Notes under the pieces: model-generated | The model's input: only the letters and a program-made list of their open reading frames with translations | Database searches by the model: none | What the model was told of the DNA's origin: nothing | Part shown: piece by piece, positions 23,619 to 60,422 of the stretch | Layout of the letters: every line of letters starts with the position of its first letter | Numbering within the stretch: the first letter of the stretch is position 1 | Source of the DNA: Bacteroidales bacterium UBA5433 | GTDB taxonomy: Bacteria; Bacteroidota; Bacteroidia; Bacteroidales; UBA932 | Reading direction: 5' to 3' | Length of the DNA stretch: 64,000 bases | Assembly (NCBI GenBank): GCA_002427525.1 | Contig: DIRP01000002.1 | Coordinates: 16,997-80,996, forward strand | Made by a program: the position numbers and the translations under genes

Positions 23619-23636
23619 GCTAACACACAACGAACT

Positions 23637-24464: not shown

Positions 24465-24465
24465 T

Positions 24466-25509: not shown

Positions 25510-25521
25510 GCAAGTAATGAA

Positions 25522-26769: not shown

Positions 26770-26773
26770 CTGA

Positions 26774-31512: not shown

Positions 31513-31544
31513 TAAATAGTAATAACATTCAGAAAAAAAACATC

Positions 31545-32201: not shown

Positions 32202-32222
32202 TTAATCATTTTAAAGTTAGAT

Positions 32223-35769: not shown

Positions 35770-36822
35770 ATGATGAAATCAATAAATAATCAGACCGTAC
35801 TGGTTTTATCTGCCTTGCTTTTTTTTGTGACTTCCTGCCATTCCGGGACCTCTAATCAGAAGCAGGCTGGGGGGCCTGTGAAGGTTAAGGTTCATACTGT
35901 TTCTGAAAACAGTATGAAGTCAGAAAGGGAGTACGTTGGCGTGGTAGAAGAGGCTAGTAATGTAGCTTTGAGTTTTCCGTCACCCGGTAAGATTAAAAAG
36001 GTGTATGTTTCTGTTGGACAGCATGTACGTGAAGGACAGGTGTTGGCTTGTACCGATTCGGAAACTTTGGAAAATATGCACGCTACTTCGCTGGCAATGC
36101 TCAAACAAGCAGAAGATGCCTGGGACAGGATGACGCTTCTTTATGAATCGGGTACTTTACCGGAAATTCAGTACGTTGAAATTCGGACCAAACTGGAGCA
36201 AGCGAGAGCTTCAGAAAGGATTGCTGCCCGGGCGCTGGCAGAAACAGAATTAAGAGCGCCTATGGAAGGAATAGTAGGCAGGCGCATGGTAGAAGTAGGA
36301 ATGAACGTACTGCCTGACCAGCCTGTAATGACCCTGCTGAATACACGCAGACCTGTAGTCAACATTTCCGTTCCTGAAAATGAGGTGTTTGATACAAAAA
36401 CAGGACAGACCTCCCGGATACAGGTTGGTGCTTTGAAAAACCTGGAATTAACCGGAAAGGTAACGGAAAAAGGTGTGAAGGCACACCCTTATACACACGG
36501 GTACGGAGTGAAAATTACCCTTGACAGGGAAGTTCCCGGCTTGCTTCCGGGCATGGTATGTAAGGTATATCTTAACAATGTACCTGTGGAAAGCAACGTA
36601 GTGGTTCCGCCACGTGCCATTATTCCGGAAGCATATAAACGGGGACATTATGTGTGGGTACTGGACAATGAAAATGAAGTTCACAAAAGAACGGTACGTA
36701 TTGGAGGAATTGTTCCCGGAGGAATAACAATCAAAGAAGGAGTATCACCGGGAGAAAGGGTGGTTGAAGAAGGCCACCAGAGAGTAAGTGAAAATATTAA
36801 AGTAGAGGTAGTCAATGAGTAA
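35770..36822 (+). CDS. RND efflux periplasmic adaptor (membrane fusion protein)
   Basis: Lipoprotein signal (FFVTSC), a biotinyl/lipoyl-like hairpin (G.I..V.V..G..V..GQVL) and L.AP..G.V motifs. Overlaps the RND pump gene by 8 nt. Confidence 0.85.
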   Translation: MMKSINNQTVLVLSALLFFVTSCHSGTSNQKQAGGPVKVKVHTVSENSMKSEREYVGVVEEASNVALSFPSPGKIKKVYVSVGQHVREGQVLACTDSETLENMHATSLAMLKQAEDAWDRMTLLYESGTLPEIQYVEIRTKLEQARASERIAARALAETELRAPMEGIVGRRMVEVGMNVLPDQPVMTLLNTRRPVVNISVPENEVFDTKTGQTSRIQVGALKNLELTGKVTEKGVKAHPYTHGYGVKITLDREVPGLLPGMVCKVYLNNVPVESNVVVPPRAIIPEAYKRGHYVWVLDNENEVHKRTVRIGGIVPGGITIKEGVSPGERVVEEGHQRVSENIKVEVVNE

Positions 36823-39800
36823 CAAAAGAAGAGGCGTTGTTGAATGGACAATGCACTACCATAAGATTGTCTTGCTTCTTGTTGCCTTTTTGGTAGTACT
36901 GGGCATTTTTGCTCTACCCAATATGCCAAAGAAAGAATACCCGGATTTTACCATAAGAAATGCCCTGGTACTGGGTATATATCCCGGGGCTTCCTCGGAA
37001 CAGGTAGAAGCACAGCTTACCATCCCTCTTGAAAAACATCTTCTTAGTTATAAGGGAGTTGACCGTGAAAAGACTTATTCAATTACCAGAGACGGTCTGG
37101 TATATTTTGTTTTGGATCTGAAGGAAAGCGAGAAATCTCCCCGTAACTTTTATGCTACCTTGAGAATAGATCTGGAAGAGTTCCAGATGCAGCTTCCCTC
37201 AGGCGTTTTACCCATTATGGTACTCAGTGAATTTGGAGAAACGTCAGCCATCCTCATTACATTGGAAAGCGAAGCTTTATCTTACGAAAATCTGGAAGAT
37301 TTGCTGAGTACACTGGAGGGACGTTTGAGTACCCTGCCCATTGTAACAAATCTTAAAAGTTACGGACACCAGAACGAGCAAGCCAACCTGTATCTTGATA
37401 AAGAGAAACTGGCTGCCTATGCCATCAATGCACAACAGGTGCTGGCACAGCTTTTTTCCGGAGGTTTTGTAACGTCAGCCGGCTCACTTAATTTAAGTAG
37501 CGGTCTTATTCCCATACACCTGTACAACTCATACCAGAGTGAAGAGGAAATACTGGAGCAACCCCTTTATTTTGATGAATCCGGCAATGTGCTGCGTGTC
37601 AAAGATCTGGGTTACATCCTGCATGAATATCCTGAACCGACAAGCTACATCACCAATAATGGTAAAAAATGCCTGCTTCTTTCTCTGGAAATGAGCTATG
37701 GATACAATATGGTTGAACTTGGAAAGCAGGTGGATACTATCTTGAAAGAATTTGAAAATGAATTGCCGGCAGATGTAGGTGTTTACCGTATTTCAGATCA
37801 GCCGCGTGTTGTTTCAGATTCCGTTTATTCTTTTTTAAGGGATATGCTCATTTCTGTCCTGACAGTAATAGCTGTCATGGTACTTATGCTGCCCATGAGG
37901 GTGGCTTCTGTAGCTGCTACGTCTATTCCTATAACTATATTCATCTCCCTTGGGATAATGTATGTTTTTGGTTTTGAGATAAATACGGTTACATTGGCTT
38001 CGCTTTTGGTAGTCCTTGGCATGGTAGTGGACGATAGCATTGTAGTCATTGACAATTACCTGAATTACCTGGATTACGGCATGAGCCGGTGGAAGGCATC
38101 TATAACAGCTGCCAATTCTTATTTCCGGTCCATCTTCTCGGCAACCATGGCTATAAGTATTACTTTTTTCCCTTTCCTTTTTACATTACCCGAGAATTTT
38201 GCTGAGTTTATATTCATGGCGCCCTGGGCCATATTTATTTCGTTAATGGTTTCCATGGGAGTAGCTATGTTATACATTCCTTATTTCCAATATTTTACTA
38301 TACGAAAAGGAATTCAACAGGTAGTTGAAAAACAAAGGCAGAAAAGCAAAAAAGGCATTTCTTTACTGGAATTGTTTGGTGTTTTCTATGAAAAATCCTT
38401 AAAAAAGGCTTTTGCACATCCTGTTGTTGTGGTAGTAACTGTTGTTTTGTTTTTGGTCCTTCCGGTTTTTGTTTACCAGAAGATGCCCAAACGGCTGATG
38501 CCCATGGCCGACAGAAATCAATTTGTTATAGAAATGTACCTGCCTTTTGGATCTTCGGTAAAAGAAACAGAAGTCGTTGCCGATTCGTTACGCAGGATGA
38601 TCCAGGAAGACGAACGGGTTCTTGCCGTTACTTCCTTTATTGGAACCAGTGCACCCAGGTTTCAGGGATCTTATGCCCCGCAGATACCGGGGCCACATTT
38701 TGGCCAGTTTATTGTAAATACCCCTTCTTCCAAAGCAACAGTACAACTTGTTAAAGAGTTCCAGAAGAAATACATACATTATTTTCCCGGAACATACGTT
38801 CGTGTAAGGCAGTTGGATTATTCCATGTTAACAGATAATGAAGTGGAAGTGAGGTTGATAGGAGAAGACAAAGACGCCCTTATACAGCTTGCAGATTCTT
38901 TGCAACATGTGATTGCCGGGATTCCCTACGTGGCTAATGTACGTTCCGATTTTGGCGGTTATCAGTATGGATTGAATTTGCAAGCAGATCCTGTGAGAGC
39001 TGCCCGTACCGGCATCAACCCCGGTTTGCTGTCTTTGAATCTGGCATCCAGGTTTGCAGGAATACCTGTTACTTCCCTTATACAGGATGGAAAGAGTATT
39101 CCGGTGGTACTGCATATTGACGGACAAGAAGGAACTATTGCGCCGGAAACTCTGGGTAATGAATATTTTCAGGGAATTGTTCCGGGAGCCGGTGTCCCGC
39201 TCAGACAAATTGCAGATCTGGAACCGGAATGGAATATTTCCCAGATTGTCAGAAGAAACGGATATCCCACACTTACGTTGATGGTAGATCTGGATCACGG
39301 AAGGGTGTCAACGGATGTATTTGATCGTGTAGTAGAGGTTATGGAGCATACTATAATTCCAGATGGAGTCCGTTATGAATACGCAGGAACATATAAGGCA
39401 GATAAAGATATGATGCCCGGGATTATGCAAGGCGTGGGTATTGCTGTTTTTCTTATTTTTCTAATCCTTCTTTTCCATTTCAAAAAAGTATCCTTGGCGG
39501 TTATGGTTTTGGGCTCTACAACACTGAGTGTTTTGGGGGCTCTTGTAGGAACGTGGATCATGAACCTGCACATTAGCCTGACAACTTATCTGGGGTTGGT
39601 TACGCTGATAGGTCTTGTTGTAAAAAACGGTATCATTATGTTTGATTATGCAGAATTATTAAGGCTCAAAGGGTATTCGGTTAAAGAGGCAGCCTATATG
39701 GCCGGTTGCAGGCGTATAAGGCCTATTTTTCAAACGTCTGCATCAACAGCTGTAGCTGTCATACCTATGTTGGTTACAAGGGATTCTTTATGGGCTCCTA

Positions 39801-39940
39801 TGGCCGCAACTATTTTCTTTGGAATCTTAACCTCTATGTTCTTTGTTTCTCTTTTTATGCCGGTTATTTATTGGCTGGTTTATAGAAAACAGGATGCATT
39901 AAAAAAAATCAAAGAACCAAAAAACAGGATATTGCCATGA
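36815..39940 (+). CDS. RND family efflux permease (AcrB/HAE1-like)
   Basis: 1041 aa with 12 predicted TM segments in a 1+5/1+5 arrangement around two large periplasmic loops. LGMVVDDSIVVIDN is the conserved TM4 proton-relay block. Confidence 0.93.
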   Translation: MSNKRRGVVEWTMHYHKIVLLLVAFLVVLGIFALPNMPKKEYPDFTIRNALVLGIYPGASSEQVEAQLTIPLEKHLLSYKGVDREKTYSITRDGLVYFVLDLKESEKSPRNFYATLRIDLEEFQMQLPSGVLPIMVLSEFGETSAILITLESEALSYENLEDLLSTLEGRLSTLPIVTNLKSYGHQNEQANLYLDKEKLAAYAINAQQVLAQLFSGGFVTSAGSLNLSSGLIPIHLYNSYQSEEEILEQPLYFDESGNVLRVKDLGYILHEYPEPTSYITNNGKKCLLLSLEMSYGYNMVELGKQVDTILKEFENELPADVGVYRISDQPRVVSDSVYSFLRDMLISVLTVIAVMVLMLPMRVASVAATSIPITIFISLGIMYVFGFEINTVTLASLLVVLGMVVDDSIVVIDNYLNYLDYGMSRWKASITAANSYFRSIFSATMAISITFFPFLFTLPENFAEFIFMAPWAIFISLMVSMGVAMLYIPYFQYFTIRKGIQQVVEKQRQKSKKGISLLELFGVFYEKSLKKAFAHPVVVVVTVVLFLVLPVFVYQKMPKRLMPMADRNQFVIEMYLPFGSSVKETEVVADSLRRMIQEDERVLAVTSFIGTSAPRFQGSYAPQIPGPHFGQFIVNTPSSKATVQLVKEFQKKYIHYFPGTYVRVRQLDYSMLTDNEVEVRLIGEDKDALIQLADSLQHVIAGIPYVANVRSDFGGYQYGLNLQADPVRAARTGINPGLLSLNLASRFAGIPVTSLIQDGKSIPVVLHIDGQEGTIAPETLGNEYFQGIVPGAGVPLRQIADLEPEWNISQIVRRNGYPTLTLMVDLDHGRVSTDVFDRVVEVMEHTIIPDGVRYEYAGTYKADKDMMPGIMQGVGIAVFLIFLILLFHFKKVSLAVMVLGSTTLSVLGALVGTWIMNLHISLTTYLGLVTLIGLVVKNGIIMFDYAELLRLKGYSVKEAAYMAGCRRIRPIFQTSASTAVAVIPMLVTRDSLWAPMAATIFFGILTSMFFVSLFMPVIYWLVYRKQDALKKIKEPKNRILP

Positions 39941-41217
39941 GGAAAGCACTTTATATCTTATTCCTGGTTTGTTTTCCGGCTTTGCAATACCTCCATGCCC
40001 AACCCTATACCCTGGAAGATTGTCGGAGGATAGCTCTTGAAAGAAATGCCATGGTACAGGAAGTCAAGCTGGGCGAAGAAGTGGCAAAGCAAACAAGAAA
40101 CCAGGCCATTACGTATTATTTTCCCGATATTTCCCTTATGGGATTTGGTTTTCAGGCATCCAACCCCATGATGAATATTGATCTTGGGATGTTGGGAAAT
40201 ATGGCTTTGCTGAAAGACGGAATTTTGGCAAGTGCTGTGGCTGTTCAGCCGGTATTTACAGGTGGTAAGATATTGTATGGAAACAAATTGGCTAAAACCG
40301 GGATCTTTGCCAGTGAGCTTTTTACTGCCATGAAGCAGGATGAGGTGCTGGCACAAACAGAAGAATACTACTGGTTGTTGTACTCTTTGTATGAAAAACA
40401 AAATACCGTTTCGAGTATGAAACAGGTATTGGATACCCTTACCAAAGACGTGCAACAGGCTTACAAAGCAGGAGTACTGGGACAGCATGAAGTATTAAAG
40501 GTTCAGCTTCAAAAAAATACGCTTGAGAATAAAAACGTAGAATTGGAAAACGGGATTTTTCTGGCAACTATGGCTTTGGCTCATCAGATGGGGTTGCCGG
40601 TAGATTCTCTGGACGGGTTCCGGCTGCATTTTCCGTCAGACTTACAGGTACGTGATCCTATGGAATTGTATGCAGACCCTGCGTCTGTAATTGCCTCCAG
40701 AACAGAATACAAATTGTTGCAAACAGGAGTACGCGCTGCAGAGCTGGAAACAAAAATGGAACGCTCGGCTTACTTGCCCAAAGTAGGAGTTGGTGCTATG
40801 TACTATTATGAGAATTTATTGGACAAAAACAATTGGAACGGTGCTGTTATGGCAGCCGTTCAGGTTCCAATTTCCAGTTGGGGCAGGGGGTCGTTTGCCA
40901 TCCGTCAGAAAAAGATTGAAGAAAAACGTGCCCGTATCCGTGAAGAAGACGGGCATCAACAACTGCTCATGCAAATACAGCAGGCCTGGGGGACGTATGT
41001 AGAAGCCTACTTGAAATACGAGTTGGCAGAACTGGCCGTTTCAGCCTCTGAAGAAAATGCCAGAATTAACGAACAATACTTCAAAGCCGGAACAGTTAAT
41101 CTTACGGAATTATTAGCTGCACGAGGAGGACTTCAACAAAGCCGGGATAATAAGACAGATGCCCTGAAAGATTACCAACTGGCTAAGAGTAAGTATTTGC
41201 AGGTAACAGGCCGTTAA
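39937..41217 (+). CDS. TolC-family outer-membrane efflux protein
   Basis: Signal peptide and two repeats of the coiled-coil/beta architecture. The Y.PD.SL..F start and the AG..N.TELL.A....Q......AL.DY ending are typical of OEP family members. ATGA overlap with the pump gene. Confidence 0.85.
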   Translation: MRKALYILFLVCFPALQYLHAQPYTLEDCRRIALERNAMVQEVKLGEEVAKQTRNQAITYYFPDISLMGFGFQASNPMMNIDLGMLGNMALLKDGILASAVAVQPVFTGGKILYGNKLAKTGIFASELFTAMKQDEVLAQTEEYYWLLYSLYEKQNTVSSMKQVLDTLTKDVQQAYKAGVLGQHEVLKVQLQKNTLENKNVELENGIFLATMALAHQMGLPVDSLDGFRLHFPSDLQVRDPMELYADPASVIASRTEYKLLQTGVRAAELETKMERSAYLPKVGVGAMYYYENLLDKNNWNGAVMAAVQVPISSWGRGSFAIRQKKIEEKRARIREEDGHQQLLMQIQQAWGTYVEAYLKYELAELAVSASEENARINEQYFKAGTVNLTELLAARGGLQQSRDNKTDALKDYQLAKSKYLQVTGR

Positions 41218-47658: not shown

Positions 47659-47666
47659 TACATTTG
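47659..47666 (+). promoter_or_regulatory. -7 promoter box (TACATTTG) for the cell-wall salvage operon
   Basis: Exact TAnnTTTG match 33 nt upstream of the ATG at 47700. Confidence 0.4.
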
Positions 47667-47699: not shown

Positions 47700-49154
47700 A
47701 TGAAAAGAATTGATTGTTTTCTCCCTGCTGCTTCCTATGAGCAAATTGCGGGAACTTTAGCTAATCTGGAGAATTTAGAATTGGTTAACAAAATCTACCT
47801 TCTTGTATCAGATGGTAAACACAACCTGGATAGTACGGGATATGAAATAATCCGGATTGATAACCTGAATTCTTCAGCCACCATTCAAAAAATTGCGGCC
47901 GTTGTTGCTACAGATTTTGCACTTATTTACACCAAATATACCCAGTTGGAACCGGGCTACCTGTCGTTGGAACGGTTTGTTCAGCTGGCAGACGATACAC
48001 GGGCCGGCATGTTGTATTCAGATCACTTTCAGATTATTGAGGGGAAGCGCAGAAAAATGCCTTTGATTGAATGCCAGGAGGGAGCATTGCGGGATGATTT
48101 CAATTTTGGTTCGGTACTTTTCTACAATGCTTTGTACTTAAAGAAAGCCGTTTCCATGTCTTTTACGGAATATGCTTATGCAGGTTTGTATTCCCTGCGT
48201 CTGGCAGTAAGCCGCATCGCTCCGCTTGTACATATTAATGAGTACCTGTATACAGAAATAGAAACAGATACACGAAAATCCGGAGAAAAACTCTTTGATT
48301 ACGTAGATCCCAAAAACAGAGAAGTTCAAATAGATATGGAAAAAGCTTGTACGGAACACCTGAAAGCCGTAGGAGCTTATCTGCCTCCTGTATTTACTCC
48401 TGTAAATCTGGATGAACGCAAGTTTGAATTTGAAGCTACCGTAATGATTCCTGTGTTTAACAGAGAACGTACCATTGAAGATGCGGTGAAATCTGCATTA
48501 AGTCAGAAGACCAGTTTTAAGTACAATGTTATTGTGGTCAACCACCATAGCACAGACAACACCGTATCCATTGTTGAAAAATATACAGGAGATTCTAAAT
48601 TGATTTTTATAACTCCGCCAAGAAGAGATTTGTTTGTAGGCGGGTTGTGGAATACGGCCCTGCACCATCCCAAATGCGGGAAATTCCTTGTTCAGCTGGA
48701 TAGCGACGACATGTATTCGGGGCCAGATTCACTGGAAACCATAGTCAAAGCTTTTTATGAGCAGCAATGTGCTATGGTTGTGGGAACATACCGTATGACA
48801 GATTTTGAATTGAATACTATCCCTCCGGGAGTTATTGATCACAGGGAATGGACCCCGGAAAACGGAAGAAACAATGCGTTGCGTATTAACGGGCTGGGAG
48901 CTCCGCGGGCGTTCTATACCCCCATTCTTCGTACCCTGTTGTTACCTAACACCAACTACGGGGAAGATTACGGGCTGGGCCTTCGTTTCTCCAGAAACTA
49001 CCAGATTGGCCGCATTTATGATGTGGTGTACAATTGCCGCCGTTGGGAGGGCAACTCGGATGCAGCCCTGGAACCGGAAAAAAATAATGCTAATAACCTT
49101 TATAAAGACAGATTGCGTACATGGGAACTTCAGGCAAGAAAACAATTGAGGTAG
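47700..49154 (+). CDS. two-module protein: unknown (possibly degenerate GT-A) N-terminal half plus a family-2 glycosyltransferase C-terminal half
   Basis: The C-terminal half has [30 protein letters not shown] and a QLDSDD DxD motif typical of GT2. The N-terminal ~230 aa have no motif I can name. Confidence 0.7.
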
Positions 49155-50476
49155 GCATTCTTTCTGCCCCTTGCATAGCCTTTCAGTTGGAAGGGAATTT
49201 CGGTCCTTTTGCGGGAGCTTTTGAAGCTACAGTACAGAACGGGGTTGTATGTGTAACAGGAAAGGAAGGCAGCAGCCATCCCGGGCAGCAGGCAGTCAAA
49301 GCGGCCCGGTGCATTTTTGAACCCTCAGATGAGAATATGTCTTTTGTTCTGAAAGACGTTGTCATAGGTATTGAATTTCATTGGGAGCGAAAGGAAGACC
49401 AACGTTTTAAAGGAGCGTTGGTCTTTGTGCCGGAAGATGGTCAGGTACGAGCCGTCAATGTACTTTCTGTAGAAGATTACCTGGTAAGTGTTATAGCATC
49501 AGAAATGAGTGCAACCAGCATGCCTGAATACCTAAAGGCACATGCGGTAATATCGCGTAGCTGGGTTCTTTCTCAAATGAAAAAAAGAGAACGTGCGGGA
49601 GGATCCGCTCCTGCATTATGCAGGGAAACGGCTGCTCCGTCAGAAATACGTACAGACGCTGAATGGATCAAATGGTGGGACAGGGAAGACCATACGTTAT
49701 TTGATGTATGTGCCGATGACCATTGTCAAAGGTACCAGGGGATCACACGGCCTTCGCAATCGTTGGATAATGTAAGCGGGGCCATTAAACAAACAGCCGG
49801 AGAGGTGCTTACTTCTGATGGAGAAATATGCGACGCCCGGTTTTCCAAATGCTGTGGCGGGATTATGGAACGTTTCTCTACTTGTTGGGAAGCGGTTGAT
49901 CCTCCTTATTTGCAGGGGAAATACGACGGTGAGGATTTTCCTGCCGAGATTCCGCTTCCGGACCTTACAGACCACGCACAGGCAGAAGTATGGATAGAAA
50001 GTACACCTCCTGCTTTTTGTAATACAGATGATACTGCCGTTCTTTCTCAGGTGCTGAACGATTACGATCAGGAAACAAAAGCTTTTTACCGCTGGGAGGT
50101 TTCTTATACTTCGGAAGAATTGGGAGATCTGATAAAAAACAGGATTGGCGAAGATTTGGGGTGTATTGAAGATTTGATACCCTTGGAAAGAGGCAGTTCC
50201 GGTCGTATTTCCAAACTAAAGATTATTGGTTCCAAAAGAACGCTCACCATAGGAAAGGAGCTCTTGATAAGAAAAGCCCTTTCGCCTACCCATTTGTATT
50301 CCTCGGCCTTTGTCCCCGTAAAACGCTCGTACGGTTTTGTTCTGTACGGAGCAGGCTGGGGCCACGGAGTAGGGCTTTGCCAGATTGGAGGAGCCGTTAT
50401 GGCCTCCCGGGGGTATTCCTATAAAGAAATTTTAGCACATTACTATCCCGGCTCGCGGATTGAAAAATTGTATTAA
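49121..50476 (+). CDS. SpoIID/LytB-domain protein (lytic transglycosylase / amidase-enhancer family)
   Basis: [14 protein letters not shown].....[20 protein letters not shown] and [13 protein letters not shown] are SpoIID-family blocks. There is no obvious signal peptide. It overlaps the GT2 gene by 34 nt. Confidence 0.8.
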
Positions 50477-51783
50477 TGAAAGAAATGCCTAAAACAAAAA
50501 CCAGGAATGCCTGGTCGTGGATCCCAACGTTGTATTTTGCACAGGGGTTGCCTTATGTGGCCGTGATGACCATAGCCGTAATCATGTACAAACGGCTTGG
50601 CCTTTCCAACACAGAAATCGCCTTGTACACCAGCTGGCTTTACCTGCCCTGGGTCATCAAGCCTCTTTGGAGCCCTTTTGTGGACCTGATTAAAACAAAA
50701 AGATTGTGGATAATTCTCATGCAAAGCTTTATAGCTGTGGGCTTTGCGGGAGTTGCTTTTTTTCTGCCCACTACTTTCTTTGTAAAAACCACCTTGGCTT
50801 TTTTCTGGCTTATTGCTTTCAGTTCTGCTACTCACGACATTGCTGCTGACGGCTTTTATATGCTGGGGCTTTCGCAAGGTGAACAATCTTTTTTTGTAGG
50901 TATCCGCAATACTTTTTACCGTTTTGCCACCATTTTTGGGCAAGGGGTACTTGTTATGCTGGCCGGTTTGCTGGAAGAAGGAAAGATTTTACCGCGAGTA
51001 GGCGGAAACATTCCGCTGGCCTGGAGCTTGACCTTTTATTTGCTGGCTGCCATTTTTCTTATTTTAACCCTCTACCATAGAGCTATACTTCCCAGGCCTG
51101 CTGCCGACGTGTCCAGAGACAACATTACCCCGTTGGGTCTTCTGAAAGACTTTTTTCTTACGTTTGGTTCGTTTTTCAAAAAGAACGACCTGGGGCTTGC
51201 TTTATTATTTATTCTTACCTACCGTTTGGGTGAATCACAACTTGTAAAAATTGCCACTCCTTTTTTACTGGATACTTCAGAAGCAGGAGGGTTGGGACTG
51301 CCAACGGCTACCGTGGGCATGGTATACGGAACCATTGGGGTGGTTGCTTTGCTCTTGGGTGGTGTGGTAGGCGGCATTGCCGTATCCCGGGGTGGACTGA
51401 AAAAATGGATTATTCCCATGGCTTTGGCCATCAATTTGCCTGACCTGTTGTACGTCTATATGGCTTCTACCATGCCGGACAACCTGTATGTGATTATCGC
51501 CTCTGTTGCCATGGAACAACTGGGTTATGGATTTGGGTTTACTGCGTTTATGTTGTACTTAATATATGTAGCCGACGGTCCGCACAAAACATCTCATTAT
51601 GCTATCGGGACCGGATTTATGGCACTGGGGATGATGTTGCCGGGTATGGCGGCTGGAGCCATTCAGGAAGCTATGGGCTACGAACTTTTCTTCCGGTTTG
51701 TTTGTTTGTGCACATTACCCGGTATAGTAGCTTCTATCTTGATAAGCAAAAGGTTACCGGCAGATTATGGAAAGAAAATCTAA
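50476..51783 (+). CDS. ampG: AmpG-family muropeptide MFS permease
   Basis: FAQGLPY, IKPLWSPFVD....KR.W and AFSSATHDIAADG parallel E. coli AmpG blocks (GLPLAL, FKFLWSPLMD, AFCSASQDIVFDA). About 12 TM segments. TAATG stop/start overlap with the upstream gene. Confidence 0.85.
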   Translation: MKEMPKTKTRNAWSWIPTLYFAQGLPYVAVMTIAVIMYKRLGLSNTEIALYTSWLYLPWVIKPLWSPFVDLIKTKRLWIILMQSFIAVGFAGVAFFLPTTFFVKTTLAFFWLIAFSSATHDIAADGFYMLGLSQGEQSFFVGIRNTFYRFATIFGQGVLVMLAGLLEEGKILPRVGGNIPLAWSLTFYLLAAIFLILTLYHRAILPRPAADVSRDNITPLGLLKDFFLTFGSFFKKNDLGLALLFILTYRLGESQLVKIATPFLLDTSEAGGLGLPTATVGMVYGTIGVVALLLGGVVGGIAVSRGGLKKWIIPMALAINLPDLLYVYMASTMPDNLYVIIASVAMEQLGYGFGFTAFMLYLIYVADGPHKTSHYAIGTGFMALGMMLPGMAAGAIQEAMGYELFFRFVCLCTLPGIVASILISKRLPADYGKKI

Positions 51784-51794
51784 TATGAATTGAT

Positions 51795-53042
51795 ATGAAA
51801 TACACACACAATTTCCTGCTTTTATTTGTTTCACTTTTTCTTGTATTATCCTGTCAGTCACAAGACCGTATTGTGAAAACAGGTATTGATGTCCTTCAGG
51901 AATCAGGGTTTGCCCTGTTGGAAGGAAAACGCGTAGGACTCATTACCAACCCTACCGGCGTGGACAGAAACCTGCGTTCTACCATAGATATTTTATTTGA
52001 AGCACCTAACGTAGAATTGGTAGCCTTGTACGGTCCGGAACACGGGGTACGCGGAGAAGTACATGCCGGAGACAGGATTGTATCGCAAACCGATCCCATT
52101 ACGGGGCTACCGGAATATTCGTTGTACGGAAGTACCAGAAGACCTACGGAAGACATGTTAGAGGGGCTGGATGTATTGGTTTACGATATTCAGGACATTG
52201 GTTCCCGATCTTTTACCTACATCTCTACCATGGGACTGGCCATGGAAGCTTGTGCTGAACTGGATATAGAATTTGTGGTTTTGGACAGACCCAATCCCAT
52301 TGGAGGTCTTAAAGTGGAAGGATGTTATGTGGAAGACGGCTGTTTTACGTTTGTGAGTCAGTACAGGATTCCTTATGTGTACGGCCTCACTTGTGGCGAA
52401 CTGGCTTTGCTTCTTAACGGGGAACGTATGCTGGGCTCGGGTGCACGCCCCGGTGAAAGTGCCCGGTGCAACCTTACGGTAGTTCCCATGGAAGGGTGGA
52501 AAAGAGATATGTTTTACGACCAAACAGGATTGCAATGGATTGCTTCTTCACCTCATATTCCGCAGGCCATAACGTCATTTTTCTACCCCCTGAGCGGCAT
52601 TGCCGGTGATCTGGCAGGCATATCCATAGGGGTTGGGTACACGTTGCCTTTCCAATTGTTTGCTCCCGTGGAAGAGAACATGGATCCGGAACAACTGGCA
52701 GCCAATTTAAACGCTCTGGACTTACCGGGGCTCTATTTCAGACCCATTTATTTCAGGCCTTTTTACAGCAGGGGGCAGGGGACCACACTGGGAGGAGTAC
52801 AGGTACACCTGACAGACCCGGCCGCTGCACCACTGACCGATGTGAATTTTTACGTAATGCAGGAAATGCATAAATTGAACCCCGAGATGGTATTCAACCT
52901 CAACAGGATCACAAAAGTGACCGGCAGTCCTTTTATAACTGAAAAATTCTCGGAAAGGTATATGTTTGAAGACATCAAAGAGTATTGGTACAAAGATGCA
53001 GAAGCTTTCCGTGAGCTTTCCGCGCGTTACTACCTTTACTAA
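51795..53042 (+). CDS. namZ: DUF1343-family exo-beta-N-acetylmuramidase (NamZ-like) lipoprotein
   Basis: Lipoprotein signal (LVLSC). GIDVL, GKRVGLITNPTGV, LYGPEHG.RG, YSLYG, VYDIQDIGSR.FTYI, VLDRPNP and LTCGELA are DUF1343/YbbC/NamZ blocks. Confidence 0.85.
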   Translation: MKYTHNFLLLFVSLFLVLSCQSQDRIVKTGIDVLQESGFALLEGKRVGLITNPTGVDRNLRSTIDILFEAPNVELVALYGPEHGVRGEVHAGDRIVSQTDPITGLPEYSLYGSTRRPTEDMLEGLDVLVYDIQDIGSRSFTYISTMGLAMEACAELDIEFVVLDRPNPIGGLKVEGCYVEDGCFTFVSQYRIPYVYGLTCGELALLLNGERMLGSGARPGESARCNLTVVPMEGWKRDMFYDQTGLQWIASSPHIPQAITSFFYPLSGIAGDLAGISIGVGYTLPFQLFAPVEENMDPEQLAANLNALDLPGLYFRPIYFRPFYSRGQGTTLGGVQVHLTDPAAAPLTDVNFYVMQEMHKLNPEMVFNLNRITKVTGSPFITEKFSERYMFEDIKEYWYKDAEAFRELSARYYLY

Positions 53043-53053
53043 AAGCACATCCC

Positions 53054-54193
53054 ATGAAGCGGTTTTACTTTTTAACGGTATTGTTGCTGTTGGTTGTATC
53101 GTGTGAGCGTGAAAAGGTAAAACCGGACCAAAATCCAGATACAGACCCCGACGTACCTGAAGTTTTTGTTCCGGAAAAGCGCATTGAAGGACGTGTGGCG
53201 TTATCTTATGTAACGTATTACAGTCAGGGAATTCCCGACCCCACATTACTCACGCACATTTGTTATGCTTTTGCCGAGTTGTATGTTGTAGGCGGTCAGT
53301 ACAGGAAATTTGCTTTACAAGGTGATCCATCACGTTTTGCTGCTGTGGCAGATTTGAAAAAAAACCATCCGCACCTGAAAATACTTTTAGCGTTTACCCA
53401 TACGGTTGATAATAAGGACAACGCACAAGGTGGTGGATTTTCCGCTATGAGCAGTACAGAAGAAGGCCGGCAGGCTTTTGCCCGGGATTGCCTGGAGTTT
53501 TTACAACAGTGGGGGATTGACGGAGTAGATATTGGCTGGGAATTTCCCGGTCTTTCCTGGAGCGGCCATGCTTCCAATCCCGCTGCAGATACGCAAAACC
53601 ATGTGTTGTTGCTGAAAGAGTTGCGCCGGACGTTGGGATCTGATTATTTGATAACATTTCCCGGATACATATCAGATGCTAAAACAATAGCAGAAGGAAC
53701 CCGTTATATTGATTTGAAGGCCGTAGAACCTTATGTAGATTTTGTGAACGTGATGACCTACGATATGGACCAGGCACCGCATCATCATTCGGCTTTGGAA
53801 GATTCCCGGGCCTATTGGGATTGCGTTAAAATGCTGGCGTCGTATAAAGCGGCAGGGTTTCCGCCGGAGAAGATGGTCCTGGGGATTCCTTTTTACGGAA
53901 GGATTTCCTTTTCCCAAAGTCCCACAGCTATTACTTACCGGCAGATTAAAAACCTGGATCCGGCAGTATATACTATCGGGAACTGGGATCCCACAGCTTC
54001 CGTACCGTACGTTACAAGAAAAGCCACGGGTGCTTTTTATTGCGGCTATGACAATCCGGCAAGTATAGCCATCAAGGGAGCGTGGCTTCTAGCCCATGGC
54101 ATGAAAGGCATGATGTGCTGGATGTACCATGGCGATGATGATAACGGAACCCTTAGGAAAGCTATGTGGAATGCTGTGATGAAACCCTTATGA
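53054..54193 (+). CDS. glycoside hydrolase family 18 lipoprotein with a non-canonical catalytic motif
   Basis: Lipoprotein signal (LVVSC). The GH18 core is THICYAFAE, GIDGVDIGWEFP (53519-53542) and VNVMTYDM. The canonical DxxDxDxE reads DGVDIGWE, with the third Asp replaced by Gly. Confidence 0.8.
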   Translation: MKRFYFLTVLLLLVVSCEREKVKPDQNPDTDPDVPEVFVPEKRIEGRVALSYVTYYSQGIPDPTLLTHICYAFAELYVVGGQYRKFALQGDPSRFAAVADLKKNHPHLKILLAFTHTVDNKDNAQGGGFSAMSSTEEGRQAFARDCLEFLQQWGIDGVDIGWEFPGLSWSGHASNPAADTQNHVLLLKELRRTLGSDYLITFPGYISDAKTIAEGTRYIDLKAVEPYVDFVNVMTYDMDQAPHHHSALEDSRAYWDCVKMLASYKAAGFPPEKMVLGIPFYGRISFSQSPTAITYRQIKNLDPAVYTIGNWDPTASVPYVTRKATGAFYCGYDNPASIAIKGAWLLAHGMKGMMCWMYHGDDDNGTLRKAMWNAVMKPL

Positions 54194-54235: not shown

Positions 54236-55651
54236 ATGAAGCAACTTCAAACTCTTTTTAAAAGCTACACAGGTACCTCGGCTCACACGATTACCGAGTT
54301 GCCGTCTTCCGGAAGTAACAGACGGTATTTCAGGATGGAGGGTAACAAAAGAACGGTTATTGGGACGCTGGGCTCCTGTAAAGAAGAAAACCAGGCTTTT
54401 ATTGCTATTGCAATGCATTTCCGGAAGCAAGGCCTTTCGGTCCCGGAAGTTTTCTGCCATAACAAAGATTTTTCGTGTTACCTGCAACAGGATTTGGGAG
54501 ATGTTACGTTATACAATGCAGTAGAAACAGGGAGGTCAAAAGGTTCTTACGATGTAAAAGAGAAAGCCTTATTGCATAAAGCCATGGAAGCCTTACCGGC
54601 GTTGCAATTTAAAGGAGCAGACAAACTGGATTTTTCCGTGTGTTACCCACAGCCGGATTTTGATGCCAGAATGGTTTCTTTTGATCTGAATTACTTCAAG
54701 TATTGTTTTTTGAAAGCCACGGGGTTGGAATTTAGTGAAATACAACTTGAAAACGATTTCCAAAAACTTTCCGAAATTTTGTTGCACAATGCATCCGAGA
54801 CTTTTCTTTACCGGGATTTTCAGGCAAGAAATGTGATGCTTGTAAACGGAGAACCTTACTTTATTGATTTTCAGGGAGGGCGCAAAGGCCCCGTATATTA
54901 CGACGTAGCGTCGTTTGTGTGGCAGGCTCGGGCCAATTACTCGGAAGAACTCAAAGAGGAATTGATCCAAACCTACCTGGGTGCATTGAAACAGTTTATC
55001 CCTGTTGATGAAAATCAATTTCACCGGCAATTGCGGCACTTTGTTTTATTCCGAACACTTCAGGTTCTTGGTGCCTATGGGTTCCGGGGGTATTTTGAAA
55101 AGAAACCGCATTTTCTACGAAGTGTACCCTTTGCCATAGACAACCTGCGTAAGTTGTTGAAAGAGCCTTTTCGAGAGTACCCCTACTTGTCTTCCTTGTT
55201 ACTGGAGCTGACAACTATGCGCCAGTATGCCGAGATGGATAAAGAAAGAAAACTGCAGGTTACTGTGTGTAGTTTTGCCTACAAAAAAGGAATTCCAAAC
55301 GATTTGAGCGGGAACGGGGGAGGGTATATCTTTGATTGCCGGGGATTGGAAAATCCGGGTAAATACGATCACTACAAACATTTCACCGGTGAAGATCCGC
55401 AGGTGGTTCGTTTTTTGGAAGAAGATGGTGGTGTTGAAATTTTTTTAGATCATGCGTATGCGCTTATGGACAAGCACATACAAAGATACATTGAACGTAA
55501 ATTTACCCATTTGATGTGTTGTTTCGGGTGTACAGGAGGCCAACACCGTTCCGTTTACTGTGCCCGGCACATGGCTGAGTATATATCTAAAAAATACGAT
55601 ATCAACGTGCATTTATACCATCGTGAATTAGAAATAGAAGCAGACTTCTAA
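54236..55651 (+). CDS. amgK: AmgK-like anomeric MurNAc/GlcNAc kinase fused to a RapZ/YvcJ C-terminal domain
   Basis: The N-terminal ~335 aa carry SGSNRRYFRM, RDFQARNVML and YFIDFQGG (APH/AmgK kinase motifs). The C-terminal ~135 aa (from about 55250) carry SFAYKKGIP, FDCRGLENP, GCTGGQHRSVY and HRELE, which parallel E. coli RapZ SFGFKHGIP, FDVRFLPNP, GCTGGKHRSVY and HRTLE. Confidence 0.75.
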   Translation: MKQLQTLFKSYTGTSAHTITELPSSGSNRRYFRMEGNKRTVIGTLGSCKEENQAFIAIAMHFRKQGLSVPEVFCHNKDFSCYLQQDLGDVTLYNAVETGRSKGSYDVKEKALLHKAMEALPALQFKGADKLDFSVCYPQPDFDARMVSFDLNYFKYCFLKATGLEFSEIQLENDFQKLSEILLHNASETFLYRDFQARNVMLVNGEPYFIDFQGGRKGPVYYDVASFVWQARANYSEELKEELIQTYLGALKQFIPVDENQFHRQLRHFVLFRTLQVLGAYGFRGYFEKKPHFLRSVPFAIDNLRKLLKEPFREYPYLSSLLLELTTMRQYAEMDKERKLQVTVCSFAYKKGIPNDLSGNGGGYIFDCRGLENPGKYDHYKHFTGEDPQVVRFLEEDGGVEIFLDHAYALMDKHIQRYIERKFTHLMCCFGCTGGQHRSVYCARHMAEYISKKYDINVHLYHRELEIEADF

Positions 55652-55664
55652 ATACCAATACAGC

Positions 55665-56411
55665 ATGCAGGCAATGATACTGGCAGCCGGCCTGGGTACC
55701 CGCTTAAAACCCGTTACAGATTCAATCCCAAAAGCGTTGGTTCGTGTCAACCTGAAGGAGGGAGGAGACCAACCCCTGCTGGAAGGCTTGCTGGACAAAA
55801 TGATAGCTCAGGGATTTACCAGTATTGTTATTAATATTCACCACCTGGGTGGCCAGATTCGCTCTTTTGTCAGTGAGTATCTGGAACGGAAGAACCTTCC
55901 TGCCAAAATCTGTTTTTCAGATGAAAGTGACTTGTTGCTGGGGACAGGTGGAGCCATAAAGCATGCCTGTCCTTTTTTTATTCCGGATTTTCCGCTGCTT
56001 GTCCATAACGTTGATATTTTATCTGACTTGAATTTGCGTGCCTTTGTAGCGGGGCACAATCCCGAGACATTGGCCACCTTGCTGGTAAGCGAAAGGGTTA
56101 CAGACCGCCAGCTTATTTTTGACAAGGAGTGGCAGTTAATCGGTTGGACCAACATAAAAACCAAGCAGTACCGATGGGTTAAAGAAAAAGAACCGTGTAA
56201 CCCGGATGGTTGTATTTTGAGGGCTTTTTCCGGTATTTACATCCTTTCTCCGGAAGCTATGCCCCTTTTTGAACAGCAGCCCGATGTTTTTTCCATCATT
56301 GATTTTTTTCTGGAAACAGCTGCTAATTATACAATTAAAGGAGTTGAAATACCCGGTATTCAAGTGCTCGACATAGGAAAACCTGAAACATTGAAAAATA
56401 CGTTGTTATGA
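55665..56411 (+). CDS. murU: MurNAc-alpha-1-phosphate uridylyltransferase (MurU-like nucleotidyltransferase)
   Basis: MQAMILAAGLGTRLKP.T...PKALV is the sugar-1-P nucleotidyltransferase signature. GTGGAI follows. It lies directly downstream of the amgK-like gene, the known amgK-murU pairing. Confidence 0.8.
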   Translation: MQAMILAAGLGTRLKPVTDSIPKALVRVNLKEGGDQPLLEGLLDKMIAQGFTSIVINIHHLGGQIRSFVSEYLERKNLPAKICFSDESDLLLGTGGAIKHACPFFIPDFPLLVHNVDILSDLNLRAFVAGHNPETLATLLVSERVTDRQLIFDKEWQLIGWTNIKTKQYRWVKEKEPCNPDGCILRAFSGIYILSPEAMPLFEQQPDVFSIIDFFLETAANYTIKGVEIPGIQVLDIGKPETLKNTLL

Positions 56412-57589
56412 AATACGATTTTGATACCATTATTGACAGGCGTGGAACAGATGCCGTTAAACTAAGACGATTAAAAACTCTTTTTGGCAGGGAAGACCTG
56501 ATACCGCTTTGGGTGGCAGACATGGATTTTGCAACCCCACCGTTTATAAGGGAAGCGCTGGAAGACAGATTGAAACACCCTATTTATGGCTATACTGTGC
56601 TTCCTGAAGATTATTGGCAAGTCATAATAGAGTGGCAACACTATATGCATGGATGGGAAATACGGGAAGAGTGGCTTACTTTTATTGCCGGAATTGTCAA
56701 AGGCATTGGATTGGCTCTGCTTCATTTCACGGGCAAAGGTGATTCTGTAATTATCCAGCCACCTGTTTACCATCCGTTTAAACAAGTAATTGAAAACAAC
56801 GGAAGGGTAGTGATCAACAACCCGCTCCTGTGGGATGGTTCCCGTTACCATATGGATTTTGACCACCTGGAAGACATCCTAAAACGCCGCAGGTGTCCCT
56901 TGCTCATTTTGGCAAATCCGCACAATCCCGGAGGCTATATGTGGGATAGAGAAACGCTGGCTACCTTGGCTGAAATATGCCATAAATACAACGTTACGGT
57001 TATTTCTGATGAAATCCATGCAGATATGCCTCTCTACGGAAACAAACACATTCCTTTCACCACGGTATCACCGGAGGCAGCCCAGATAGGAGTTGTGTTC
57101 AATGCTCCTTCAAAGACATTCAATATTGCAGGACTTGTCAGCTCATACGCCATAGTTCCTAACCAACAGCTAAGAAAAGGGTTTTATGATTTTTTAAGTG
57201 CCAGTGACCTGAACGATTCAACTTTTGTTGCCACAATAGCAACCCGCGCTGCTTATACTCAAGGAAAGGAATGGCATAAACAAATGCTTACCTACGTTCA
57301 GAACAACATTGATTATGTTGTGGAGGAATTGCCGCGTTATATTCCATTAATCCATGCTTCGCGCCCCGATGCTTCCTTCCTCGTATGGTTGGATGCCAGG
57401 GATTTACAGAAAGTTGGCATAGACTGTATTCCTAAATTTTTTATTGATGCAGGTCTGGCTTTGAATGACGGAGCTATGTTTGGTCCCGGCGGGGAAGGGT
57501 TTATGCGTCTGAATGCCGGTTGTCCGCGTGCTGTATTGGAAAAAGCACTGGAGCAGTTGTACAGGCACTACAGACACGTTACTACTTGA
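56408..57589 (+). CDS. MalY/PatB-family PLP-dependent C-S lyase (class I/II aminotransferase fold)
   Basis: YDFDTIIDRRGTDAVKL......G.EDLIPLWVADMDFATPP is the MalY/PatB N-terminal signature. SPSK-like NAPSKTFNIAGL carries the PLP lysine. ATGA overlap with murU. Confidence 0.85.
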   Translation: MKYDFDTIIDRRGTDAVKLRRLKTLFGREDLIPLWVADMDFATPPFIREALEDRLKHPIYGYTVLPEDYWQVIIEWQHYMHGWEIREEWLTFIAGIVKGIGLALLHFTGKGDSVIIQPPVYHPFKQVIENNGRVVINNPLLWDGSRYHMDFDHLEDILKRRRCPLLILANPHNPGGYMWDRETLATLAEICHKYNVTVISDEIHADMPLYGNKHIPFTTVSPEAAQIGVVFNAPSKTFNIAGLVSSYAIVPNQQLRKGFYDFLSASDLNDSTFVATIATRAAYTQGKEWHKQMLTYVQNNIDYVVEELPRYIPLIHASRPDASFLVWLDARDLQKVGIDCIPKFFIDAGLALNDGAMFGPGGEGFMRLNAGCPRAVLEKALEQLYRHYRHVTT

Positions 57590-59504: not shown

Positions 59505-60422
59505 ATGGTCAAACGCATCTTGCTTCTTATTTTTCTGTGGACATGTTTTACACCCACATCGGCAACTCCTCGTGTGGAAGACAAAGCCGGTAATTCCCGG
59601 GAAAAAGATTCTCTGTCTTTTGTAAATGCACAATGGATTACAACCTCATATCATAAAGGAGGTATTAAGCTTAGGCAAGCAGCATTTAGCGACAGCTCCC
59701 TGTTTAACTCAAATCAGTTTATTTCGGTACTGGAGATCAGTTCTTCTTTCCGTTTTGACATAGTTGCAGATACTGTACTGGTTCATACAAGCGATTTTGT
59801 TGACTATGCGGGAGCATTGGCCGGAATAAACGGATCTTTTTTCGTGTGGTTTGCTCCTTGGAAATCAGATAATTACCTTAGAATAGACGGAAAAGAACTA
59901 GCACCAAACCAGACCACAAAAGAAGGGTTGCGGTCCTTCAGGCAATCCGGCTGCCTAGGTGTCTCCCCCAAAGGGAGGTTGTTGATTTTTAAAGTACCGG
60001 ACCACGTGCTGCCTACACAGGACAACGACCTGTGGGAAAAGAATACAGCATCGGAAGACCTGTTATCAAGCGGACCTGTACTCAGAATGAAAGGGAAAGA
60101 CGAGCCGGTTCTTCACCATTCTTTCAACACCACACGGCATCCCAGATCAGCTGTAGGTATAAGGAAAGGTGGCAAAGTGCTGCTGGTTGTGGCAGACGGG
60201 AGACACAAAGAAGCAGCCGGAGTGAGCATGGCAGAATTGCAACATATCATGCGCTGGCTTAAAGCATGGGATGCCATAAACCTGGACGGTGGCGGTTCCT
60301 CTACGCTTTGTGTTCGCAAAACAACACGTGATTCTGTAGAAATAGTCAACCACCCGTCAGACAACAAATTGTTTGACACAAAAGGTGAAAGACGGGTTGC
60401 CAATGCTCTTGTGGTAAAATAG
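59505..60422 (+). CDS. phosphodiester glycosidase-family (DUF2233 / NAGPA-like) secreted protein
   Basis: Signal peptide. GINGSFF, R.AVGI.....LLVVADGR and INLDGGGSST are DUF2233 blocks. Confidence 0.7.
   Translation: MVKRILLLIFLWTCFTPTSATPRVEDKAGNSREKDSLSFVNAQWITTSYHKGGIKLRQAAFSDSSLFNSNQFISVLEISSSFRFDIVADTVLVHTSDFVDYAGALAGINGSFFVWFAPWKSDNYLRIDGKELAPNQTTKEGLRSFRQSGCLGVSPKGRLLIFKVPDHVLPTQDNDLWEKNTASEDLLSSGPVLRMKGKDEPVLHHSFNTTRHPRSAVGIRKGGKVLLVVADGRHKEAAGVSMAELQHIMRWLKAWDAINLDGGGSSTLCVRKTTRDSVEIVNHPSDNKLFDTKGERRVANALVVK

Follow-up and report, generated by a model that had tools for sequence, protein, structure and literature searches.

This report concerns an open reading frame (ORF) at positions 54236..55651 (+) of a 64,000-nt stretch of DNA from contig DIRP01000002.1 of the Bacteroidales bacterium UBA5433 (GenBank assembly GCA_002427525.1); the whole 64,000-nt stretch is called the window below. 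The ORF encodes an AmgK-like sugar kinase joined, through a variable linker, to a domain of the kind found at the C-terminal end of RapZ; it is followed directly by a gene for a MurU-like uridylyltransferase. AmgK and MurU serve the salvage of N-acetylmuramic acid (MurNAc), in a pathway that bypasses MurA and MurB (PMC8054146, PMC5790795). Here, we describe the locus, the spread of the fusion among bacteria and the conservation of its two domains, and then consider what the RapZ-type domain may contribute to a salvage enzyme.

The fusion protein and its two domains

An earlier reading, made from the sequence alone (the sequence-only reading), had proposed an AmgK-type kinase fused to a RapZ C-terminal domain (CTD), and Pfam, NCBIfam, PDB and Foldseek all agree with it. 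The motifs that it quoted from the kinase (SGSNRRYFRM, RDFQARNVML, YFIDFQGG), from the CTD (SFAYKKGIP, FDCRGLENP, TGEDPQVVRFL, GCTGGQHRSVY, HRELE) and from the C-terminus (IEADF) are all in the sequence, and the murU-like ORF does begin 13 nt past the stop codon, at 55665.

Pfam places APH (PF01636, the aminoglycoside phosphotransferase family) at residues 18-248 (E 1.4e-14) and PapZ_C/RapZ_C (PF22740) at residues 340-466, over profile positions 1-121 of 121 (E 4.3e-33), while the NCBIfam AmgK model NF045759 aligns with residues 27-325 (E 1.2e-23). The match of the CTD to the RapZ family is highly significant also when the C-terminal 136 aa are searched by themselves (PF22740, E 2.6e-34). A sequence search of PDB returned the CTD of E. 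coli RapZ (5o5s) for residues 336-466 (E 1.2e-14) and the APH-family structure 3csv for residues 19-305 (E 1.5e-12). These domain matches are far beyond chance. Because the NCBIfam RapZ model NF003828 aligns over model positions 148-278 of 278 only, the P-loop half of RapZ is absent, as the sequence-only reading had maintained; no Pfam match to a P-loop NTPase (Walker A) domain was found in the 471-aa protein, and its N-terminal 335 aa have the APH fold.

The AlphaFold2 (AF2) model of the full-length protein has a mean pLDDT (predicted local distance difference test) of 87, with the kinase domain mostly above 85 and residues 332-337 below 50. A Foldseek search with this model gave 3csv as the top match (E 6.7e-13, target-normalised template modelling (TM) score 0.75), together with other small-molecule kinases; the list was dominated by APH kinases and thus uninformative on the CTD, which was therefore modelled alone. 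The resulting AF2 model of the C-terminal 140 residues has a pLDDT of 90.9, and in a Foldseek search against PDB only RapZ entries (8b0j among them) were significant, with TM scores of 0.84 (query-normalised, 8b0j) and 0.92 (target-normalised, 5o5s), root-mean-square deviations (rmsd) of 1.5-2.1 Å and 32-34% identity; further matches had E > 0.4. The features of the ORF and of the surrounding gene run are collected in Table 1.

Table 1. Features of the fusion gene and of the eight-gene run in which it lies (window coordinates)
Feature	Position	Strand	Remarks
Whole ORF: AmgK-like kinase, linker and RapZ C-terminal domain	54236..55651	+	471 aa, ATG start
APH-fold anomeric sugar kinase domain, AmgK-like (residues 18-325)	54287..55210	+	Pfam, NCBIfam, Foldseek, AF2
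Kinase catalytic loop R193-D194-F-Q-A-R-N199 and metal-binding I210-D211-F-Q-G-G215	54812..54880	+	alignment conservation
Variable interdomain linker (residues 326-339)	55211..55252	+	identity 0.09, low pLDDT
RapZ C-terminal domain (residues 340-466)	55253..55633	+	PF22740, Foldseek
Gly-rich insertion S358-G-N-G-G-G363, family-specific	55307..55324	+	absent in E. coli RapZ; inserted after I175-D176
Strand Y364-I-F-D367, then C368, R369	55325..55342	+	corresponds to RapZ dimerisation strand Y179-V-F-D182, then V183, R184
Anion (phosphate)-binding loop G431-C-T-G-G-Q-H-R-S439	55526..55552	+	corresponds to RapZ G246-C247-T248-G249-G250-K251-H252-R253-S254
Short acidic C-terminus I-E-A-D-F and stop	55634..55651	+	replaces basic RapZ tail (E. 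coli ...EKRKP)
Glycosyltransferase family 2 (GT2) glycosyltransferase	from 47700	+	first of eight-gene run
SpoIID/LytB	49121-50476	+	
AmpG-family major facilitator superfamily (MFS) permease	50476-51783	+	
NamZ exo-beta-N-acetylmuramidase, glycoside hydrolase family GH171	51795-53042	+	
GH18 hydrolase	53054-54193	+	
MurU-like MurNAc-alpha-1-P uridylyltransferase	55665..56411	+	13 nt after fusion stop
PatB-family C-S lyase	56408..57589	+	last of run; TIGR04350, 444 bits, cut-off 340

Reality and spread of the fusion

Could the two domains have been joined by an assembly or frameshift error? An identical copy of the 471-aa protein is found in 451 indexed blocks of independent public assemblies, and the 22 contigs with the identical protein that were examined have the same neighbour genes, including a metagenome-assembled genome (MAG) from NCBI, GCA_012519735.1. 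The 120 best homologues, at 66-100% identity, all have both Pfam domains and a length of about 471 aa. Two broader surveys extend this picture. In an exhaustive HMMER search against 1.84 billion 50%-identity representatives, 825 matches reached E <= 1e-30; the best 150 of these, which go down to 36% identity, are nearly all 470-490 aa long and align with residues ~3-467 in a single stretch, and more than 120 clusters at 50% identity have the AmgK-RapZ_C architecture. A scan of one genome per GTDB species gave at least 600 pattern matches, and in the best 80 loci, which were analysed, the fusion is full-length without exception (80/80). The 451 blocks, the homologues and the species loci together rule out an artefact that joins two genes, to which we give practically no chance, and the architecture put forward in the sequence-only reading is genuine.

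The fusion is real, ancient and widespread, and it is special neither to the source genome nor to the Bacteroidota, since it occurs in at least seven phyla. Among the 80 loci, the Bacteroidales are represented by Muribaculaceae, Tannerella sp., Phocaeicola plebeius DSM 17135, Alloprevotella rava DSM 22548, Prevotella and Paludibacteraceae, and other Bacteroidota by Prolixibacteraceae, Chitinophagaceae and Sphingobacteriales. Further lineages are Ignavibacteriales, many Acidobacteriota, Gemmatimonadota, Elusimicrobia (Elusimicrobiota), Eremiobacteraceae (Eremiobacterota) and Opitutaceae (Verrucomicrobiota). Two deviating architectures were seen, a 718-aa protein (P0136) with a 3'-5' exonuclease domain ahead of AmgK-RapZ_C and a 520-aa protein (P0264) in which an APH kinase is followed by a UvrB-interaction domain; these may be merged gene calls or chimeric contigs instead of true fusions.

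The kinase domain and its relation to AmgK

The kinase residues R193, D194, Q196, R198, N199, D211 and Q213 are invariant in an alignment of 55 sequences, and the same positions are at least 95% conserved among 123 diverse representatives of the two-domain family. The kinase is probably active, because D194, N199 and D211 are invariant. Its assignment to AmgK is supported by the APH fold with the catalytic Asp/Asn pair and the metal-binding Asp, and by the genomic pairing with a MurU-type uridylyltransferase. The scores fall far below the equivalog cut-offs (83.8 bits against 550 for NF045759, and 46.5 against 500 for NF045698); the AmgK families are nonetheless the best curated match and align over the full length of the kinase. 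On these comparisons the protein is a distant relative of AmgK.

Proteobacterial AmgK is a single-domain protein of about 340 aa. Like the Pseudomonas putida AmgK, the kinase of the fusion has the APH fold and the same catalytic motifs, and a MurU-like gene lies directly downstream; unlike it, the fusion protein adds a RapZ-type domain of 130 aa, and it scores 84 bits where 550 are required. The curated NCBIfam name of the P. putida enzyme is N-acetylmuramate/N-acetylglucosamine kinase; P. putida AmgK takes N-acetylglucosamine (GlcNAc) as well.

Tannerella forsythia shares the order-level lineage of the source bacterium. The AmgK and MurU of Tannerella forsythia convert MurNAc to UDP-MurNAc in vivo (PMC10941766, PMC13046382, PMC7670621); the pair has been functionally validated and has served as a labelling tool in E. 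coli. T. forsythia is a MurNAc auxotroph that lacks MurA and MurB, and AmgK/MurU are its proposed route to UDP-MurNAc (PMC7670621, PMC5790795). Orthologues of the fusion in Tannerella sp. MAGs are 58% identical over residues 1-471, carry PF01636 and PF22740, and have MurU directly downstream. A homology search that started from the Tannerella sp. orthologue found proteins of Tannerella sp., Tannerellaceae and Parabacteroides, all of them fusions, and no entry named T. forsythia. Because the Tannerella sp. orthologues have it, the AmgK-RapZ_C architecture is probably present in the T. forsythia AmgK also. Taken with AmgK as the best family, the coupling to MurU and the presence of NamZ and AmpG in the same operon, this orthology points to 1-phosphorylation of MurNAc, and possibly of GlcNAc also, as the likely reaction of the kinase.

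Coupling to MurU

The fusion gene is number six in a same-strand run of eight genes with close spacing or overlaps. The ORF that follows it matches the NCBIfam MurU models NF045761 (E 3.1e-25) and NF045697 (E 1.1e-23), both under cut-off, and the Pfam NTP_transferase family. A MurU-like gene is found in 63 of the 80 species loci and lies directly downstream on the same strand in 62 of them, across seven phyla, usually with a 4-nt or 1-nt overlap between the stop codon of the fusion and the start of MurU, or with a gap of less than 30 nt. Moreover, the two are in some cases a single polypeptide: triple fusions AmgK-RapZ_C-MurU make up at least seven independent 50%-identity clusters (P0126 of 722 aa, P0127 of 760 aa, P0131, P0169, P0233, P0251 and P0263, 712-816 aa overall) and occur at one species locus (760 aa, at 8001-10283 of locus L028 in a GTDB species genome). 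In these proteins MurU is attached at the C-terminus of the CTD, with the MurU domain beginning about 10-15 residues past the end of RapZ_C.

No third neighbour (phosphatase, GlmR/YvcK or transporter) recurs around the fusion, the next most frequent cluster being present in 10 of the 80 loci. The upstream scavenging genes stand beside the fusion in only 1-3 of the 80 loci, and in the same order in GCA_012519735.1. The conserved unit is thus the kinase-RapZ_C protein plus MurU, and NamZ, AmpG and GH18 are a lineage-specific addition that fits peptidoglycan scavenging. Within the window, the upstream genes and AmgK/MurU look like a complete peptidoglycan-scavenging operon. The NamZ and GH18 products start with lipoprotein-like signal sequences (...LSC and ...VSC). 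In a published survey, NamZ was mostly missing where the AmgK/MurU route was present (PMC8054146); the operon in the window has both, unlike that trend.

The last gene of the run, for the PatB-family C-S lyase, overlaps murU at its stop codon by 4 nt (ATGA), and because of this overlap the lyase is probably co-translated with the salvage genes; such a lyase was found beside the fusion in none of the 80 other loci. A Bacteroidota-type -7 motif, TACATTTG (which fits TAnnTTTG), is located at 47659-47666 (+), 34 nt upstream of the ORF at 47700, in a divergent intergenic region. There is no TAnnTTTG motif in the 42-nt gap ahead of the fusion gene, and the motif is not enriched across the window; scans for sigma-70 promoters and for terminators gave results at chance level. 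The motif upstream of 47700, and the lack of one before the fusion gene, suggest that a single long transcript runs from about 47.7 to 57.6 kb.

What the C-terminal domain has kept, lost and gained

Conservation in the CTD was read from an alignment of the 123 two-domain representatives with E. coli RapZ. The E. coli sequence in this alignment reproduces 22 of 22 published residue numbers; by the same check the RapZ strings quoted in the sequence-only reading are right. Mean pairwise identity is 0.49 in the CTD, 0.38 in the kinase and 0.09 in the linker, which ranges in length from 9 to 56 residues, and of the 55 positions conserved at 95% or more, 27 lie in the CTD. Because it is better conserved than the kinase and holds so many of the most conserved positions, the CTD is, to judge from the alignment, functional and not decaying.

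The CTD fold of RapZ is present, and so are two elements within it. The first is the anion loop. In RapZ, T248, G249, H252 and R253 bind sulfate or malonate with C247 alongside, and this pocket is the proposed site for glucosamine-6-phosphate (GlcN6P); the changes C247A/S and R253A are inactivating (PMC5737377, PMC9841335), as is H190A. For GlcN6P, the E. coli CTD on its own has a KD of ~10 nM (PMC7073468). In the fusion family the loop positions are at least 98% conserved except for position 436, and five of the six pocket residues (H190, C247, T248, G249, H252, R253) are kept, as C432, T433, G434, H437 and R438; the sixth, H190, is Gly in 120 of the 123. The second element is the strand Y179-V-F-D182, in which mutations prevent the RapZ CTD from interacting with itself (PMC5737377). 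Its counterpart is recognisable from the sequence, F366 and D367 being conserved at 98%, and the residues that follow, C368 and R369, at 100% and 99%. H462 (E. coli H276), R369 (R184) and D367 (D182) are kept, and Lys or Arg stands at the K170 position in 107 of the 123.

What has been lost is the basic RNA-binding surface (K170, R184, K194, R196, R211, R238 and K251, with the ...KRK tail), which as a whole is not found in the family. R238 has become Phe and K251, in most members, Gln; K194 and R211 vary or are acidic. The C-terminal tail has a net charge of +3 or more in 2% of the representatives, and the net charge of the CTD is -4 in this protein and about 0 on average in the family, against +5 in E. 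coli. The gains are equally consistent. G361, G362 and G363 of the Gly-rich insertion are 98-99% conserved, and the residues that are invariant in the family and new with respect to E. coli RapZ comprise these glycines together with C368 (V183 in RapZ), R421 (N236), Y418, F423 (R238) and F430. RapZ I175 has been described as adjoining the sulfate pocket, and N236 and S239 likewise lie beside it (PMC9841335); by alignment, G361-G363, C368, R421 and F423 fall at or beside the pocket positions I175, N236 and S239. The surroundings of the pocket thus give the appearance of remodelling under strong selection, not of decay. The pattern of residues points to a domain that very probably has lost the RNA function, and that would have retained phosphate binding with a change of ligand.

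Comparison with RapZ and YvcJ

The likeness to E. coli RapZ (PDB 5o5s, 5o5o and 8b0i) is confined to the CTD: the fold, the C-T-G-G-x-H-R-S loop, the YVFD strand, D182/R184 and H276. An unrelated APH kinase stands in place of the P-loop N-domain; the family has Gly for H190, Gln for K251, Phe for R238 and Arg for N236; it carries a further invariant Cys and a Gly-rich insertion of 5 residues; and the domain lacks the basic tail and has a neutral or acidic character. On the RapZ equivalog model NF003828 the protein scores 100.3 bits, below the cut-off of 244. Because the P-loop domain, the RNA determinants and the curated cut-off all fail, in functional terms the protein falls outside the RapZ family. 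Canonical RapZ itself is a kinase-like domain followed by the same C-terminal domain (PMC5737377), and the fact that an unrelated kinase fold here holds the position of the RapZ N-domain suggests, by analogy, that the basic job of the CTD may be tied to phosphoryl chemistry on amino sugars.

Bacillus subtilis YvcJ is, at the level of analogy, the nearest conceptual parallel. It is a RapZ homologue without the C-terminal RNA-binding consensus, and it is concerned with the sensing of a cell-wall precursor (UDP-GlcNAc), not with small RNAs (PMC7525490). The parallel is incomplete, in that YvcJ retains the P-loop N-domain, its binding of UDP-GlcNAc needs the Walker A lysine, and its partner is GlmR (YvcK) rather than a sugar kinase or MurU.

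A proposed role, and the alternatives

The fusion protein can be viewed as a two-domain cytoplasmic enzyme of peptidoglycan sugar salvage. The products of the upstream SpoIID, AmpG, NamZ and GH18 genes would release and import MurNAc; the AmgK-type domain would convert MurNAc (possibly also GlcNAc) and ATP to the sugar alpha-1-phosphate; and MurU, translationally coupled, would then make UDP-MurNAc for cell-wall synthesis. The CTD, carried on a flexible linker, would homodimerise the kinase and bind a phosphorylated amino sugar, with GlcN6P, MurNAc phosphate, UDP-MurNAc and UDP-GlcNAc as candidates. Perhaps the binding of this ligand acts allosterically to match salvage flux to the supply of precursors, or perhaps the CTD holds MurNAc-1-P for MurU. 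We judge it somewhat better than an even bet that the CTD is such a dimerising, phospho-amino-sugar-binding module, one that tunes or couples the AmgK-to-MurU step and is not an RNase adaptor. The sequence-only reading had likewise argued for ligand sensing rather than RNA binding; the second half of this contrast agrees well with the loss of the RNA-contact residues and the basic tail, and the invariance of the anion loop and the dimer strand is consistent with ligand sensing, which the residue pattern makes plausible.

Several considerations weigh against this proposal. The pocket residue His190, essential in RapZ, is replaced, and GlcN6P itself may therefore not be the ligand. The full-length AF2 model has a predicted TM score (pTM) of 0.69. 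Proteobacterial AmgKs work without a CTD, which must then be dispensable for catalysis as such, and the conserved polar residues (two Cys, His, Arg and Asp) would also fit the active site of an enzyme. Finally, the scores are low for both enzymes (84 bits against 550 for the kinase and 89 against 250 for MurU), the assignment of the substrate coming from context and Tannerella orthology.

In one alternative the CTD is itself catalytic, carrying out a Cys/Arg-dependent reaction on a sugar phosphate, as a MurNAc-6-P phosphatase replacing MupP or as a mutase or isomerase, so that AmgK, RapZ_C and MurU would form a three-step line. The loop C432-x5-R438-S439 is invariant and lies between a beta-strand and a helix; in RapZ the backbone atoms of this loop and the Arg side chain hold sulfate; and C-x5-R-S resembles, in our own reading of the motif, the phosphate-binding loops of phosphatases. 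Many other polar residues are invariant, including a second Cys (C368), and in the triple fusions the CTD sits between kinase and MurU. E. coli RapZ C247S is inactive, and the RapZ authors have suggested a catalytic thiol and report that the pocket contained a 'chemically transformed product' of GlcN6P (PMC9841335); phosphatase activity has also been reported for B. subtilis YvcJ (PMC7525490). Nonetheless, the CTD model retrieves RapZ alone in Foldseek (all others at E > 0.4), isolated RapZ CTDs are not known to be catalytic, and salvage from free MurNAc needs no third enzyme. We consider a catalytic CTD possible but unlikely. A fold of the protein tyrosine phosphatase (PTP), low-molecular-weight PTP or ArsC type around C432-x5-R438-S was looked for and is not among the 50 Foldseek matches listed; the local resemblance of the motif is left as a lead.

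Alternatively, the CTD could be purely structural, a dimerisation or scaffold element that joins AmgK with MurU and whose pocket is kept for the stability of the fold. The RapZ CTD dimer strand is conserved, the linker is flexible, and the tight translational coupling to MurU together with the triple fusions suggests a complex. A scaffold would hardly be expected to preserve, throughout seven phyla, both an anion loop that is exposed and some 25 polar or Gly positions at 95% or more, nor to be conserved above the level of the catalytic domain itself, and we hold this explanation to be rather improbable.

It is also conceivable that the kinase and the nucleotidyltransferase work on another sugar, by a 1-phosphate route for GlcNAc, N-acetylgalactosamine (GalNAc) or some other hexosamine. 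The AmgK and MurU hidden Markov model (HMM) scores, far under the equivalog cut-offs, would allow for this, as would the acceptance of GlcNAc by P. putida AmgK and the fact that the neighbourhood past MurU is not conserved in most phyla. We nevertheless think it quite unlikely: AmgK and MurU are the top curated families over the full length, AmpG and the MurNAc-releasing exo-muramidase NamZ are encoded in the same operon, and the Tannerella pair works on MurNAc (PMC10941766), the Tannerella sp. orthologues being 58% identical.

That the protein binds RNA and acts as an RNase adaptor in the manner of RapZ, as NCBI product names imply by labelling several homologues 'RNase adapter RapZ', and as might be read from K170 (Lys/Arg in 107/123) and the invariant R184, is very improbable, since there is no P-loop N-domain, H190 (where H190A kills RapZ) has become Gly, R238, K194, R211, K251 and the basic tail are lost from a neutral to acidic domain that earns 100 bits against a cut-off of 244 on the RapZ equivalog model, GlmY/GlmZ are described as enterobacterial (PMC7073468), and YvcJ, also without the tail motif, shows no RNA binding (PMC7525490).

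A broader evolutionary idea may be set beside these. The RapZ CTD could be an ancient enzyme or sensor module for phospho-amino sugars, with a kinase as its primary partner, the RNA binding of the enterobacterial protein being a later co-option. The fusion would then have kept the metabolic role, for example a thiol/Arg-dependent transformation or the hand-over of MurNAc phosphate from kinase to uridylyltransferase. We regard this as speculative and on balance improbable; if true, it would reveal the conserved function that has long been sought for RapZ/YvcJ outside GlmY/GlmZ, and a third component of the MurNAc bypass.

Other genes in the window

About 2 kb downstream of the salvage operon, at 59505-60422 (+), lies a gene for a protein with a NAGPA domain (phosphodiester glycosidase, 'uncovering enzyme'-like) that has no NCBIfam match. 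The 1098-aa protein encoded at 7257-10553 (-) has a Golvesin C-terminal domain and also a weak match to N-acetylmuramoyl-L-alanine amidase (Amidase_3), and is, from these matches, possibly another cell-wall-degrading protein.

A cluster for lysine fermentation occupies 22374-33425 (+). It encodes a class-III aminotransferase, a beta-keto acid cleavage enzyme (BKACE), a zinc-type dehydrogenase, lysine 2,3-aminomutase, a MutS-domain-V protein, D-lysine 5,6-aminomutase (the alpha subunit and the B12-binding beta subunit), a CoA transferase and a thiolase, and is typical of an anaerobic amino-acid fermenter. Ordinary genes are those for a tungsten-type aldehyde:ferredoxin oxidoreductase (AFOR_N + AFOR_C) at 3194-5344 (+) and for a resistance-nodulation-division (RND) efflux system with HlyD-like adaptor, AcrB-family pump and outer-membrane factor at 35770-41217 (+).

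Annotation and significance

In the databases, proteins of this family appear as 'phosphotransferase', 'RapZ C-terminal domain-containing protein', 'RNase adapter RapZ' or 'glmZ(sRNA)-inactivating NTPase' (sRNA, small RNA); examples of the RapZ type of name are WP_122274214.1 (Parabacteroides sp. AM08-6) and HNX11866.1 (Paludibacteraceae). Because the RapZ equivalog score is 100.3 bits against a cut-off of 244, the name 'RNase adapter RapZ' on the fusion homologues is unjustified and looks like a systematic misannotation. Thousands of entries have received this name from the CTD alone, and for them it is very probably wrong.

The sequence-only reading knew of no characterised example of the architecture. 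Among the papers that could be searched, none joins AmgK with RapZ or discusses the extra domain, and those on Tannerella AmgK that were read do not mention it; the architecture itself is very common in at least seven phyla and already in databases, and the functionally validated AmgK of T. forsythia probably has it.

Intrinsic fosfomycin resistance in Pseudomonas rests on the AmgK/MurU bypass (PMC5371407). If the enzyme of the Bacteroidota type is regulated through its CTD, this would bear on thinking about drug targets and on metabolic labelling with the Tannerella AmgK and MurU. For the RapZ field, the fusion offers a simple in vitro system in which kinase activity is the read-out for the ligand or the chemistry of the CTD. 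RapZ and YvcJ are conserved well past the bacteria that have GlmY and GlmZ; the fusion ties the C-terminal domain of this family to amino-sugar-phosphate metabolism without RNA.

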